Assembly: GCF_902652985.1 (NCBI RefSeq)
Contig: NC_047017.1
Location: forward strand, 41,850,001-41,914,000
From: Pecten maximus
Lineage: Eukaryota
DNA length: 64,000 nt
Direction of reading: 5' to 3'
Numbering within the stretch: the stretch's first letter is position 1; the number at the start of each line of letters is the position of its first letter. The position numbers and the translations under genes were made by a program. A model generated the notes under the pieces. It made no database searches and was not told the origin of the DNA. It saw only the letters and a list, made by a program, of their open reading frames with translations. Shown piece by piece: positions 338 to 9,262 of this stretch.

Positions 338-3300
338 CTTGACCAGTTGCATTAACGTATTCCAGAGCCTTTTGGACGTCATCGTCTTTAGTGACATCAA
401 GCTTGATCACATGAAGCCGGTCCGACTGACGTGCCTGTAACACTTTGGCCCCCGGACTCTCCAGGCTGAGGACCCCGGCATATACTCTATACCCTAAGTC
501 GTATAGTCGCTTGGCGAGTAAGTGACCAAATCCTAATTAACCAATATTGAGTGAAAAAAATATAATTAGACATGAATGACAATGCAAACTCACAATAACA
601 AATTAAAGACTATGCAAATAAAGAACTACACAAAATATACTGTCATTATCAATTATGTTTGTTTCATCACTTGAACTAATAATTTGCTTTTCTAATTGGT
701 CAGATCATTTTTTATCATACAATAAAGAACGCCATAAGATATGTACATATATGTTTACGTTTGATGCCATGCGACATGTTCAATATGTTTACGTCATTGA
801 TTCCAGTTCCACACGTCGTTCACCATAAAAGTTTAGAACACCTTGCAGAAAAACCTTACCCTCTAGATAAAACTGACATAACTACACTATATATTTCATT
901 GACTCCAACTCTGTCACCCGAGTTATGAAGTGAGAAATGAAGCCGTTAAATACAAGACCTCAAGTAGATATAATCATAAAATCATGTCACTCAATATAAA
1001 CAGGTATATAACGCACTACATAGGAAGCCGAATATGTAATATGTAGGAAACGATGTCATGTATTACATACATTTTAATGAAAGCCTGGCAGTAAAATCAT
1101 ATCATTCATATTCACGCTTAACATTCTACGAGGTAGATAACAATATTGGACCATGTTTGTTAATAGGACGCTAAACAAAATAAACCAAACCAAATAGATA
1201 AATTACGCCAACATACACCCTTTGTAGATATCACCGCCCTTACACACTTGATTTGTATACTACCCTATTACTACGTCACACCTGATCTGTATCCTATCCT
1301 ATTACTACGTCAGACTTGATCTGTATCTTACCCTATTACTACGTCACACTTGATCTGTATCTTACCCTATTACTACGTCACACCTGATCTGTATCCTACC
1401 CTATTACTACGTCACACTTGATCTGTATCCTACCCTATTACTACGTCACACTTGATCTGTATTCTACCCTATTACTACGTCACACTTGATCTGTATCCTA
1501 CCCTATTAAAACGTCGCACCTGATCTGTATCTTACCCTATTACTACGTGAAACTCGATCTGTATCTTACCCTATTACTACATCACACTTGACCTGTATTC
1601 TACCCTATTACTACGTCACACTTGATCTGTATCCTACCCTATTACTACGTCACACTTGATCTGTATTCTACCCTATTACTACGTCACACTAGATCTGTAT
1701 CCTACCCTATTACTACGTCACACCTTATCTGTATTTTACCCTATTACTACGTCACATTTGATCTGTATCCTACCCTATTACTACGTCACACTTGATCTGT
1801 ATCCTACCTAATAACCACCTCACACTTGATATGTATCCTACCCTATTACTACGTCACACCTGATCTGTATCCTACCCTATTACTACGTCACACTTGATCT
1901 GTGTCTTACCCTATTACTACGTCACACTTGATATGTATCTTACCCTATTACTACGTCACATTTGATCTGTATCCTACCCTATTACTACGTCACACTTGAT
2001 CTGTATTCTACCCTATTACTACGTCACACCTGATCTGTATCCTACCATATTACTACGTCACACTTGATCTGTATCCTACCCTATTACTACGTCACACCTG
2101 ATCTGTATCCTACCCTATTACTACGTCAGACTTGATCTGTATCCTACCCTATTACTACGTCACACTTGATCCTATCCTATTACTACGTCACACTAGATCT
2201 GTATCCTACCCTATTACTACGTCACACTTGATCTGTATCCTACCCAATTACTACGTCACACGTGATCTGTATCCTACCCTATTACTACGTTACACTTGAT
2301 CTGTATCCTACCCTATTACTACGTCACACTTGATCTTATCCTACCCTATTACTACGTCACACTTGATCCCTATCCTATTACTACGTTCACACTTAGATCT
2401 GTATCCTACCCTATTACTACGTCACACTTGATCGGTATTCCTTCCCTAATTACTACGTCCACCCTTGATCTGTATCCTACCCTCTTACTACGATTCACAC
2501 CTTGATCTGTATCACTACCCTATTACTACGTTCACATCCTGATCTGTATCTCTTACCCTATTGACTACGTCACACTTGAATCTGATCCTACCCTACTTAC
2601 TCCGTCACACCTGATCTGTATCCTACCCTATTACTACGTCACACCTTTGATCTGGTATCCTTACCCTATTACTACGTCACACCTTGATCTGCTATCCTAC
2701 CCTAATTACTACGTCACACTTGATCCTGTATCCTACCATTTACTACGTACACTTAGATTCTGTATCCTACCCTATTACTTCGTCACACCTGATCTGTATC
2801 CTACCCTATTACTACGTCACACTTGATCCTATCCTATTACTACGTCACACTAGATCTGAATCCTACCCTATTACTGCGTCACACCTGATCTGTATCTTAC
2901 CCTATTACTACGTCACACTTGATCTGTATCCTACCCAATTACTACGTCACACTTGATCTGTATCCTACCCTATTACTTCGTCACACCTGATCTGTATCTT
3001 ACCCTATTACTACGTCACACTTGATCTGTATCCTACCCAATTACTACGTCACACTTGATCTGTATCCTACCCTATAACTACGTCACACCTGATCTGTATC
3101 TTACCCTATTACTACGTCACACTTGATCTTATCTTACCCTATTACTACGTCACACTTGATCTGTATCCTACCCTATTACTACGTCACACTTGATCTGTTT
3201 CCTATCCTATACTACGTCACACTTGATCTGTATTCTAGCCTACTACTACGTCACACTTGATCCTATCCTATTACTACGTCATACCTGATCTGTATCCTAC

Positions 3301-4333
3301 CCTTTTACTGCGTCACACCTGATCTGTATCATACCATATTACTACGTCACACTAGATCTGTATCCTCCCCTATTACTACGTCACACCTGATCTGTATCCT
3401 ACCCTATTTCTACGTCACACTTGATATGTATCCTACCCTATTACTACGTCACACTTGTTCTGTATCCTACCCTATTACTACGTCACAACTGATATGTATC
3501 CTACCCTATTACTACGTCACACTTGATCTGTATCTTACCATATTACTACGTCACACTTGATCCTATCCTATTACTACGTCACACTTGATCTGTATCCTAC
3601 CCTATTACTACGTCACACCTGATCTGTATCCTACCCTATTACTACGTCACACTTGTTCTGTATCCTACCCTATTACTACGTCACACCTGATCTGTATCCT
3701 ACCCAATTACTACGTCACACTTGATCTGTATCCTACCCTATTACTACGTCACACTTGATCTGTATCCTACCATATTACTACGTCACACTTGATCTGTATC
3801 CTACCCTATTACTACGTCACACCTGATCTGTATCCTACCCAATTACTACGTCACACTTGATATGTATCCTACCCTATTACTACGTCACACCTGATCTGTA
3901 TCCTACCATATTACTACGTCACACCTGATCTGTATCCTACCCTATTACTACGTCACATTTGATCTGTATCCTACCCTATTACTACGTCATCACATATCTG
4001 TAGATTACGAGTAATGAAAAAAAACTTGTTTTTTGTATCGATGACTATATAACAAACAGATGAAAACTGAAAACATTAACACTTCTAAGACGAGAAGCAA
4101 ACTTCTCTACTATTCTGTGTTATTCGGATCCTGTGTACTGCCTTACCTGTATCACAACCTGTGATGACCACGCCTTTTCGGCCGATGTCCAACTTCTGCC
4201 GAAAATTGTTTCTGGTTAGTCTCAATAAAATGTAGACCAGTGAAATGGCCAGCAAATATTTCCAGTAAATAAACAGAAAATATACATTCAATAAAAGTAA
4301 ATATAAAACGCATGTGTTCTCTAACGACAACAT
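338..4333 (-). CDS. SDR paralog A (BDH1/BDH1L-like, SDR9C), partial: exons 1-2 only, rest off the left edge
   Basis: Exon 1 4333-4147 (MLSLENTCVLYLLLL...GVVITGCDTG, 187 nt) and exon 2 532-338 (FGHLLAKRLYDLGYRVYAGVL...YVNATGQ, 195 nt). GT-AG sites in phase 1, with the TGxxxGxG Rossmann motif split by the intron. Exon lengths match the other paralogs. Confidence 0.88.
1243..3990. repeat. 34-bp minisatellite (CACACTTGATCTGTATCCTACCCTATTACTACGT), about 80 copies, in intron 1 of SDR A
   Basis: Direct tandem periodicity; indel-rich stretch around 2290-2760. Confidence 0.97.
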
Positions 4334-7052
4334 AATGGAGTATGGGGCGCTGATAAGAAGGTCTGAAACAAAAGATAGGAACTTGTTTAGAGCACGATAT
4401 GTAACAAAACACACACACACTACTAAAATCTACACCGACATGTTATCTGTTATCAGTGTATATTAATGCGAGTACATGATCGCACGTTTACCTACACTTA
4501 AACAAAATTAGGCTGACAGGGTCAAAGTCAATATTTCCAGCAATGCCAATCCCATATTTATTGTTAGAAATCTAGTAACTACTTTTCTAAACGGACCCTG
4601 GATCAAACATTACGAAAATGTTAAGCATGGATACACCGCAAACACGTGCTGTTTTTGGGTATCCAGGTTCATGTTTACTATTGATAGATAGTTCAATTCT
4701 AAATTATCAGGGCCAAGTTCAATGCCATATTAATTCTTCCTTGAATTTCATATTTTCGTGCTTGGCAGCATACCAGCACCAAAACCGAACAAAAAAAACC
4801 CCCATAAATGACCAAGTATCGAAATATCATGTGCTTCCGGCTACTAGTTAATGCCATCGTTACTATATAGAGGAAGAATATTGCATACTTCTACTTTCTT
4901 CATTAAGGCTGTCCTCGGCAAGGCCACTAATACTGCAATAAACCATGTAATAACTAGGTTGTGGAGAAAAAGGGGGCGGTTTAGATATTCCAAACAGTCA
5001 TTTCGGATTTGAACAGTTTTGGTCATTAACATCATTGTAGAATCCGTGAAAGACCAAATATCTGTAAAAAAAATAAATAGCACAAATCAGTCCTACCTGT
5101 TGGCTTGTAAGGAACAATGCGCGTGTGTATTGCGCGCTTGTGCATGGATATCTCCTGTGGCGCACCGTTTTAAATTATTCCGTGTGACCAGTGAACTACT
5201 TCATTACTGTTCTACCTGTGGAACAGGGGAGTACTCTGTCTAGGATGTCTAACGATTATAGTTCTCATCACTAAGGAATTAAGGTTTTCTACAAAGAAAA
5301 GGCGCCACAAAGACTTATATTTACAATTGTCTGGCATTGTCACTATATAGTCTGTTTGAGAGCTCTGGCATTGGTTACGTTTAAATGCCATCCACCACGC
5401 GCTACACTTATCAGCGTATTAATACAACACAAACCGGAACTACAATATCCAGGATAATTAAGTTTAACGACTAATATTTTTGTCTACATTATTTGTTATA
5501 AAAACTATGCCATTTGCGCATTACGTTGATAATAAAGTGATTAACAAAATTGAGTTTAAGAAAAAAAACTTTTCCATGTACTATTTTGTTTGCCAAAAAG
5601 CACGCGACCATGTTCCGGCTGTTTCAACGACTGACAAAAAAAATCTGCTGACTGTCTGTAAGGCGGGAATAATGAATTTTAAACATGAATTATAGCACTT
5701 GAAAAATATAAAAAAAAAAAAAAAAGGAATGTAAATATAAGCGTTGAACCGTTCAAATAATAATGTGCGTTAGATTATGTTGTTTGCTTGCAAAGCTCTG
5801 GCATTCAAATAGATCATAAATACCATACAAAAACAGTTCAATGCTTAAGTATTTAGCTATTCAAAGAACTGATCACTGATTCATTAGTATGATGAGTCTA
5901 AAATCATTAAAAATATTTGTAAAAATTGCTTCGTTAAGGTAAGGAGTAGATATGGAAAAGATTGTCTAGAAAACTTATACAATGTCAAGGAGACGACGAT
6001 GGACAAGTCAAGGAGGCAAAGACTGATAACGTCACCAGTCTCTGCGAATGGTGTCATTAAAGAGACCCTGGACATACATGCAGTATTTTGTCGAAGGAAT
6101 AAGCACACACGTGGATTTGGTTGATGTAGGTAATTACAATTGTAGCAATCTTGCCAAGAAAGAATCAAGGGCGAGGTTGTAGAATGAAATGTTCACAAGC
6201 AAATATGTTGGAAAAATATACCATACGAGTGGTGTTTGCGCTGACTTTCTGTAATTACATCAGCACTGTAACAAACGAGTACACTATTTAAATGGAGGTA
6301 ATACATAACCTTTGAATAATTGAAGAAACGAAATTCCCTTTTATTATACCTGGTTTCCTTAGTTATCTTTATACCAGAACTTTAAAAGGAAATGTTAAGA
6401 AAATACCATTCTCCTTTACCATACAATAAGATTAAACAATGTTAACGTATTGAGTTAAGTACTTGATTTTCAGCTGGACGAAAGGGATCTGCATTCAATT
6501 CACGGCACTAAAGGACCCACTTTGTCCATGCATGCTCCTAATGTTTAAGATTAATGTATTCCAGGAAGTCAAGAGAACTTTGGCAGCATGTTTTTGGGAA
6601 ATTCTTAAACCCGAAGAGCTGACTTAATGCAGCATAGGCGATTATGTTCCATTTCCGTTGCAGGAGATGGGTCTGTCAGCTTTGTGACTGTACAATAAAG
6701 CCGTGATGCCCCAGAAACCTCATTAGATTAGAAATTAAACATTTTGTTACCAGGGAAATCAGGTCTGGGTTGGCCAATATGAGTAAGAATTGACCGATCT
6801 GACTCAACATCAACCATTTGGCATTCTTTATCATATGACCAGGACGCTTAATGGTTTCATTATCCAACCGTGATTCAAACAAGTCAATATTAAGAATGGG
6901 GTAACTGGGAGTAGTATCTGTCAAAAATATCTTGTTTCAATTCCATTCTGTAGCATCATGACCATCAGTCATTGTTGTAAATAATGTACATTTTACTTGA
7001 CCATATGTAAGACGAGCCATTGACTCATTATGTAATCAAGAATAAACAAAGC

Positions 7053-7077
7053 CTATTATTATTATTATTATTATTAT
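7053..7077. repeat. (TAT)n microsatellite
   Basis: Direct reading. Confidence 0.9.
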
Positions 7078-7422
7078 AGCAGGAAAAAACGCATTAACGC
7101 CAAATTCCACGAAGATCTTTCTAAATTATCGATCTCATCAGAACACGTTCCGCCAATAGCATTCACATAGATTACTGCAATCGTGTTATCTGATTAAAAA
7201 CACAACTGAAGATAGGTGAGAGAAAGAAGAGACTGAAGAGTCAGGTAGACAGCTTTGAGTTCTAGTTCAAAACGTTGATTTGATGGTGGGATTTCGATTC
7301 CGACCATCTTCCGCCTATCTGTAGTTTTATCAGCATATAAAGCCAGCATGGGGGAATGACATCTATCCCTTGCCAAATGGCCAGATGAATTCCCTCAAAT
7401 CCTGAACGGGGTTCAGTAACTG

Positions 7423-8680
7423 AAACCTGAGATACCTACGGTGATCACGTAAACCTGAGATACCTACGGTGATCACGTAAACCTGAGATACCTACGGTGA
7501 TCACGTAAACCTGAGATACTCATGGTGATCACGTAAACCTGAGATACCTACGGTGATCACGTAAACCTGAGATACTCATGGTGAACACATAAACCTGAGA
7601 TACCCTACGGTGATCACGTAAACCTGAGATACCTACGGTGATCACGTAAACCTGAGATACTCATGGTGAACACATAAACCTGAGATACCTACGGTGATCA
7701 CGTAAACCTGAGATACCTACGGTGATCACGTAAACCTGAGATACTCATGGTGATCACGTAAACCTGAGATACTCATGGTGATCACGTAAACCTGAGATAC
7801 CTACGGTGATCACGTAAACCTGAGATACTCATGGTGATCACGTAAACCTGAGATACTCATGGTGATCACGTAAACCTGAGATACTCATGGTGATCACGTA
7901 AACCTGAGATACCTACGGTGATCACGTAAACCTGAGATACCTACGGTGATCACGTAAACCTGAGATACCTACGGTGATCACGTAAACCTGAGATACCTAC
8001 GGTGATCACGTAAACCTGAGATACCTACGGTGATCACGTAAACCTGAGATACTCATGGTGATCACGTAAACCTGAGATACTCATGGTGATCACGTAAACC
8101 TGAGATACTCATGGTGATCACGTAAACCTGAGATACCTACGGTGATCACGTAAACCTGAGATACTCATGGTGATCACGTAAACCTGAGATACTCATGGTG
8201 ATCACGTAAACCTGAGATACTCATGGTGATCACGTAAACCTGAGATACCTACGGTGATCACGTAAACCTGAGATATTTCCTGTGATCACACAAACCTGAG
8301 ATATTTATTTGATCACATAAACCTGAGATACTCATGGTGATCACGTAAACCTGAGATACTTACGGTGATCACATAACCCTGAGTTATTTATTGTGATCAC
8401 ATAAACCTGAGTTATTTATTGTGATCGCATAAACCTGAGATATTTACTGTGATAACATAAACCCGAGATATTTACGGTGATCAAATAAACCTGAGATACT
8501 CATGGTGATGACTTAAACTTGAGATACTTACCAGGATCACAGAAACCTGAGATACTCATGGTGAACACATAAACCTGAGATACTCATGGTGAACACATAA
8601 ACCTGAGATATTTACTGTGATCACACAAACCTGAGATATTTACTGTGATCACATAAACCTGAGATATTTACGATGATCGT
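7423..8680. repeat. 28-bp minisatellite (AAACCTGAGATAC[CTAC/TCAT]GGTGATCACGT), about 45 copies
   Basis: Period 28, two interspersed variants, palindromic GTGATCAC core, more diverged toward 8680. Confidence 0.97.
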
Positions 8681-9262
8681 AATGTATAGGGATACTAAGA
8701 TAGTCATCAGTCAGATCAATGGATAATAGGTAATCACCTTTCTGGATAAGATCAAGAACCACATGATAATAAAGAGATAACTTTCAATATGATACATTTA
8801 AATGTTTAAAGGTTATTGGAAAAAATGTACTCATTTGACCTGTGGCTTTGATGTCAGTGTCACAATAACCTAATGGCGATGCATTGCACTTTGGTGTTAG
8901 GTCATGAAATGTACAGCAATTTTGATTAAGATATTTTGCTTTAGAATATATGGCCCTGCCAAGAAATTATTAGAAGAACCGGTACTAATATGATAAGTTT
9001 CCCTTTGTTTAAATGGGAGACAAAATGACTGAGAATGATTGCTGTATTGCTAAGAATACGTGAGGGTCGCCTTGAATTGTTCAAACAACTGTGCAACTTT
9101 CAAGACCACACAGTTAAGCTTCTATCTGTTCTTTATTATATAATTAACTTGCCAAATTTTGATGTTTCCATATTTTTGATCAACACGGTTGCATTTTTAT
9201 TTAGTGAACGATCTTGTTTTCTTGATTACAAGTATCTTCTCATCACCAGTTCCAGAAGACCA

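Follow-up and report, generated by a model that had tools for sequence, protein, structure and literature searches.

The window (the whole stretch of DNA analysed, 64,000 nt of a 918-Mb genome) holds a minisatellite with units of about 28 nt that lies, together with the relic of a DIRS1-like retrotransposon, in the spacer separating tandem short-chain dehydrogenase genes; of the five exon frames tested, three are recognised as adh_short. In total, 13% of the window is taken up by seven large arrays. Positions 4085-41200 and the 64 kb upstream form a tandem cluster with many short-chain dehydrogenase copies and nested segmental duplications, and the upstream duplicate contains a ~6-kb insertion (same contig, about 41813300-41819540; L007/L003) bounded by 1,133-nt direct repeats that are 100% identical; it may be an LTR element of very recent date. 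In the left flank, 40 nt at window 8940-8980 belong to a dispersed repeat of high copy number. The coordinates of the array and the relic are collected in the table, in which units carry the prefix W in the window array; P is used for units of its paralog.

Table. Features of the minisatellite and of its host relic, in window coordinates.
Feature	Position	Strand	Description
Minisatellite	7423..8678	-	44 units of ~28 nt and a terminal one of 24 nt; unit sequence is RT DNA encoding D-H-R-K-Y-L-R-F-M
Unit 1	8651..8678	-	In the RT frame; the relatives' homology stops directly after its ATG-TG (M-W)
Old heterogeneous block, W1-W15	8260..8678	-	Carries 10/10 private substitutions of the array
Young homogeneous block, W16-W44	7447..8259	-	Variant A x13, variant B x12 and two units each of two recombinant types; the paralog has no such block
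Units W4-W5	8539..8594	-	Also W37 at 7671 and W40 at 7586; candidate memory of the seeding deletion junction
RT island beyond the array	7386..7422	-	K-L-L-K-P-V homolog at 7422-7405 (14/18), then E-G-I at 7396-7387 (8/10)
DIRS1-like RT fragment	8679..8763	-	Amino acids 66-93 of L040 pol; the element's 5' part is missing upstream
Decayed RNase H and methyltransferase region	6640..7385	-	DNA identity 64-80% to L053/L041/L040/L054
Decayed start of tyrosine recombinase ORF	6454..6742	-	Overlaps the pol end; rest of the element missing; from tblastn and blastn

The relic keeps, on the minus strand, the order reverse transcriptase (RT), RNase H (RH), methyltransferase (MT) and tyrosine recombinase (YR), all co-oriented and all decayed. 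This is the order of DIRS1-like elements, in which RT-RH-MT is followed by a co-oriented YR and which carry ITR and internal complementary region (ICR) repeats that separate DIRS1 from PAT (available text of PMC3266345). Relatives in this genome have such ITR/ICR repeats, whereas the truncated relic is without them and lacks gag, both termini, most of RT, most of YR and ~90 nt of MT. DNA identity of the RT fragment to L040/L041/L054 is 74-79%, and tblastn matches the relic to the pol of L040 (E 3e-13) and L042 (E 3e-10) and its YR start to the YR of L041 (E 1e-7) and L042 (E 2e-5). The 43-aa translation VVLDLIQKGDYLLSIDLTDDYLSIPIHY-DHRKYLRFM* has at least 39 places in the genome among the best 150 of 219 candidates scored, with best non-self matches in the same set of 79% (L012/L041) and 76% (L013/L040). 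A Pfam search with this fragment alone gave no match; its relatives reach RVT_1 above the cut-off, L040 pol with E 4.6e-15, and the assignment of 8680-8757 to DIRS RT made in the earlier note is upheld. In a PDB search HIV-2 RT was the only match (E 0.8-1.1) and was set aside. An (AAT)n microsatellite at window 7052-7078 lies within the RNase H/MT region of the relic.

The relatives differ in completeness. L042 has full-length gag, RT-RH-MT and YR frames, although its Pfam matches for MT (Dam, E 0.0035) and YR (E 1.9e-4) are both below Pfam cut-offs, and a full set of ITR and ICR repeats is present in L042 and L044. Together with L043 and L045 these form a young, near-identical DIRS1-like family, and ITR/ICR complementarity in L042/L044 is 95-100%. 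In L053, an 89-nt inverted pair, 202 nt apart, resembles the right ICR/ITR pair of L042/L044; an inverted repeat pair sought in L040 and L054 was not found. The copies nearest to the relic, L040 and L041, are 99% alike. DNA searches for a closer parent family with pieces of the relic or its relatives gave nothing above ~79% except the paralog among the best candidates scored, and the sole extra match of a 17-nt island pattern, L089, is without pol homology.

Tandem Repeats Finder (TRF) calls the array at 7423-8678 with period 28, 44.9 copies and 90% matches. The minus-strand RT frame crosses unbroken into unit 1, reads DHRKYLRFM and then meets a stop, and this continuity, first described in the earlier note, is confirmed. 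As the period cannot be divided by 3 and a stop follows unit 1, the array is likely neutral and without function. Its length of 45 units, right junction and distal homogeneity are those of one assembly. Hairpin-driven expansion was considered as well and rejected: three-unit folds of five unit types, on both strands, are no stabler than those of shuffled units (fractions 0.10-0.72).

The origin of the unit can be read from the flank. When 84 nt of flank alone are used as an anchor, the next 28 nt of L012 and of L013 each match unit 1 at 21/28, a score at the predicted position that none of 200,000 shuffles reached; the next-best place for the unit in L040 pol gives 17/28. The flank itself is 63/84 identical to L012 and 62/84 to L013 (74-75%), on a par with the unit match, so that the unit is as similar to the nearest family copy (75%, in register; natural copies were compared, not a consensus) as its surroundings are. 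Because the unit matches at the predicted position and homology stops after ATG-TG, it is RT DNA of this very copy. The previously proposed derivation of the monomer from RT is borne out, and the array is real and has almost certainly arisen in place, from 28 nt of DIRS pol, an origin that is strongly supported.

It had also been suggested that units near the RT fragment keep RT-like bases. This applies to TTTATG, an RT-like state concentrated proximally (12 of W1-W14 vs 2 of W16-W44), but not to AAA, which is no more RT-like than the AAG carried by the nearest relatives, and there is no overall gradient of RT-likeness along the array (Spearman 0.02, p 0.89). Unit 1 and distal variant A both match RT at 21/28, and W12, W36 and W39 reach 22/28.

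Beyond the array, RNase H does not resume directly as had been thought, since 7422-7386 is further RT. The KLLKPV block of this island is in frame, with three of its four mismatches at third codon positions; the chance of the match is 0.004 for the first block alone, and 30 of 200,000 random stretches do as well for both blocks. Local alignment of the island gives p 0.001-0.007 for L012/L013, is weaker for L014/L019 and fails (p > 0.1, both copies) for L039, L020, L024 and L031, four of the eight relatives tested. Two other assignments were tried and rejected: as sequence directly upstream of RNase H the island matches none of four relatives (p 0.54-0.98), and as a degenerate array unit its best p among eight tests is 0.02, weaker than the RT match. 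Because the 37 nt after the array match further RT, the array stands in for only about 61-67 nt of RT. A separate deletion of ~490 nt, removing about amino acids 141-304 of L040 pol, starts ~36 nt past the array, after E-G-I. The motif named earlier as missing at the array site, YLDD, is YIDD in the nearest copies (at amino acid 145 of L040 pol), and its loss belongs to this second deletion, set apart from the array by the island. The proposed coupling of amplification to deletion thus stands for a deletion of 61-67 nt, but not for the large one that removed YIDD.

A segmental duplication ~36 kb upstream, with flank divergence of 3.3-3.5%, provides a second copy of the array. The paralog has ~16 units (15.5-16.2), with both junctions and the island the same as in the window copy, and its units P4-P8 are colinear with W6-W10 (8538-8399), with 0-2 differences each as flank divergence predicts. 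Because junctions, island and colinear core are shared, the seed, a core that had already diversified, and the large deletion are all older than the duplication. The unit strings are xccBB?BxcddyBd?ABBBABBBAAAAABBBABBAABAABABAAA in the window and x?c?Bxcddcddcdc? in the paralog, and after the duplication different variants expanded distally in the two arrays. The terminal unit, W45 in the window, has 24 of 28 nt and is common to both.

The two blocks of the window array differ in age. The 15 units W1-W15 are all distinct, with a mean pairwise difference of 4.7, whereas W16-W44 comprise four types with a mean pairwise difference of 1.8, and two variants account for 25 of these 29 units, in agreement with the homogenisation of distal monomers into two variants reported before. 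No private substitution occurs in the 812 nt of W16-W44 against about 14 expected if this block were as old as the duplication, a zero count that assembly polishing could exaggerate. The proximal units are old and mutated and the distal 29 are a young block. The four-gamete test fails for 14 of 78 column pairs and multi-unit blocks recur, as would result from units exchanging sequence or from recurrent change; the unit tree, built on 28 columns with recombination and with P16 and W45 left out, is used descriptively only. Unit 1 ends ATGT in the window and AAGT in the paralog, so the first junction itself has turned over. Growth is distal-biased in both arrays, and the polar amplification suggested earlier holds to that extent, with young blocks distal and the old core proximal, but the pattern comes from two arrays only, the window array also has ~2 extra units proximally, and both arrays end in the same terminal unit.

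The array is a single-locus array that expanded in place. A 22-nt junction pattern occurs 32 times in the genome, every time within one of the two paralogous arrays (control 0), and in 28 related RT loci single-copy sequence continues past the unit homolog. Six of 18 public runs listed hold part of the stretch, and the paralog-type first junction is spanned by contigs from X1 and X5, runs of two different studies, either of which may be the assembly source. Among the contigs listed from public runs none has the window-type first junction, and among the loose ends listed none continues from the left junction as intact RT. In run X5, window 8654-9058 is covered by one contig of depth 58 (approximately the sum of two downstream contigs, 36 + 25) with only the paralog-type first junction. 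Either the window-type array start is perhaps confined to some haplotypes, or the duplication is perhaps a polymorphism.

How the first copies were made is suggested by the nearest relative. In L012/L041, the unit homolog ends with TGTG, and a further TGTG lies 61 nt on, just ahead of the F-T-K codons preceding K-L-L-K-P-V. The most RT-like unit, P6, has a self-junction that matches 9/10 to RT just upstream of KLLKPV, the only such match in ~610 nt of L012 (background multiplied by 11 positions, 6e-4), and the B-type junction (W3/4, W4/5 type) matches the R-V-F-T-K segment of L041 at up to 12/13 (0.007 on the same correction, all 401 array 13-mers allowed); both tests were devised after the match was seen. 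From these comparisons we favour, with moderate confidence, the reading that a small deletion seeded the array by setting two near-identical short words 28 nt apart. The starting point, which is observed, is a DIRS copy, old and by then in decay, with a short-chain dehydrogenase gene on either side. A 61-nt deletion between the two TGTG words, at M-W and at R-V-F, would have brought the F-T-K codons to a point exactly 28 nt downstream of the unit start, where a 6/7-identical word stands, and slippage or unequal exchange at this 6/7 repeat would then have given the first copies, with the downstream word retained in B-type units. The paralog shows that both junctions, the large YIDD deletion and a core numbering at least about 8 units existed before the segmental duplication. 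Later blocks were added near the distal end of each copy from different templates, probably with exchange between units.

Several observations count against the proposed seed. The double TGTG occurs only in L012/L041 and L013/L040, two of the eight loci tested, which at 99% identity are one lineage, and L086 has a different base there. The 9/10 junction match is confined to L012, L013 giving 8/10. The relatives used are ~25% diverged from the relic, and the true parent family is not among them. The terminal unit of today is without the predicted junction, so that a further loss of ~10 nt must be assumed, and no 5-10 bp direct repeat is present at the array ends now. B units mismatch the downstream word at column 9. 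T at column 2 may be a new mutation rather than a memory of the seed, because it is rare (4 of 45 units in the window, none of 16 in the paralog) and the unit tree makes it a derived state.

Other histories account for part of the same evidence. Slippage in continuous RT could have come before any loss, a later deletion from within the last unit taking the next 67 nt and the junction likeness being due to chance. Minisatellites fill 13% of the window, the relic has several other deletions, and the paralog gives no order of events because both junctions are common to both copies; this order is nevertheless unlikely, as it requires a coincidence of 6e-4 to 7e-3 and leaves the first duplication with only 1 nt of visible native microhomology. 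Unlikely too is a one-step repair scar, in which a break after M-W underwent polymerase theta-type end joining, with loss of ~67 nt and insertion of copies templated from the adjacent 28 nt, which slippage later expanded. An insert templated from the immediate flank exactly at the deletion junction, one base (G) of priming homology and an incomplete last unit are hallmarks known from C. elegans (available text of PMC5068794), the comparison being of sequence hallmarks alone. Inserts in that work are mostly under 25 nt, however, 28 nt being at the long end; an expansion to 45 units needs another process, and the unit junctions resembling RT just upstream of KLLKPV (9/10, 12/13) are left unexplained. 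The hairpin that suggested snap-back filler synthesis at the right junction is a weak 6-bp stem of a kind found in 4.5% of background windows, lies in RT-homologous sequence and is superseded by that homology.

The form in which the idea was first put, with the array filling one large deletion of the remaining RT including YxDD and RT-likeness decaying distally, is already largely refuted and is now very improbable. In its favour, disregarding the 37-nt island leaves ~608 nt of L040 pol without explanation, and the island is short and aligns poorly to four of eight relatives; it is nonetheless a colinear RT match in frame, all four relatives compared show no match to it just upstream of RNase H, and the expected gradient is absent. 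No supporting point was found for a dispersed minisatellite that travelled with the DIRS family or was inserted from another place, and with every match of the exact 22-nt pattern in this assembly inside the two paralogous arrays and the 28 related loci single-copy past the unit homolog, such an origin has next to no probability.

TE-derived minisatellites are already well known, and the present array is a clean case rather than a new system. In human, 23% of mini/satellites are TE-derived, 601 of them from L1 (Ahmed & Liang 2012, PMC3389668), and further cases are reviewed in PMC6947457. As in the available text of PMC3389668, where the similarity of unit to host TE is 70% or more and the overlap between them no shorter than one period, the unit here resembles and overlaps its host and has expanded in place, and the longer array of one lineage is only partly common to its counterpart. 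The host, in contrast, is DIRS1-like, the unit is demonstrably RT-coding, there are 45 units against a typical 2-3, and TE sequence downstream has been replaced by the array, not just added to. In the Haber-Louis seed, as summarised in PMC3389668 and PMC6947457, 5-10 bp direct repeats flank the unit; the first duplication proposed here would similarly use a 7-nt near-perfect direct repeat one unit apart, but one probably made by deletion and since gone from the array end. The incomplete terminal unit (24/28 nt) recalls slipped-strand mispairing at non-contiguous repeats (PMC3389668, its ref. 14), although here the truncation coincides with the deletion junction and is not diagnostic.

The birth of this array is unusually traceable, as the first two copies of a minisatellite are generally hard to observe. 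Conserved coding sequence supplies the ancestral state and the segmental duplication a dated intermediate, which makes seed, early core and late expansion separable. A broader proposal, which we regard as possible but doubtful, is that microhomology-mediated deletions in decaying transposons make the direct repeats that seed minisatellites, with turnover erasing the seed at the array end and internal variants recording it. If so, the 28-nt array would be a worked example of deletion-made seeds, and the route could cover part of the 94% of TE-derived tandem repeats left unexplained by existing models, the two seed models accounting for 6% according to the available text of PMC3389668. Among the titles and abstract openings covered, no DIRS-derived minisatellite and no deletion-made seed was found. 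The proposal predicts that arrays in TE coding regions sit on small microhomology-flanked deletions more often than chance.

Two neighbouring or related arrays were also observed. L040 5988-8990 shows a second DIRS copy adjoining a tandem array: there the nearest DIRS relative breaks off within MT, and a 147-nt tandem repeat with higher-order spacing comes next. The neighbouring 34-nt minisatellite (window 1243-4002 vs L007 5865-6558) has 81 copies in the window and 20 in the paralog, parallel to the 28-nt array (45 vs 16), and both are longer in the window's duplicate.
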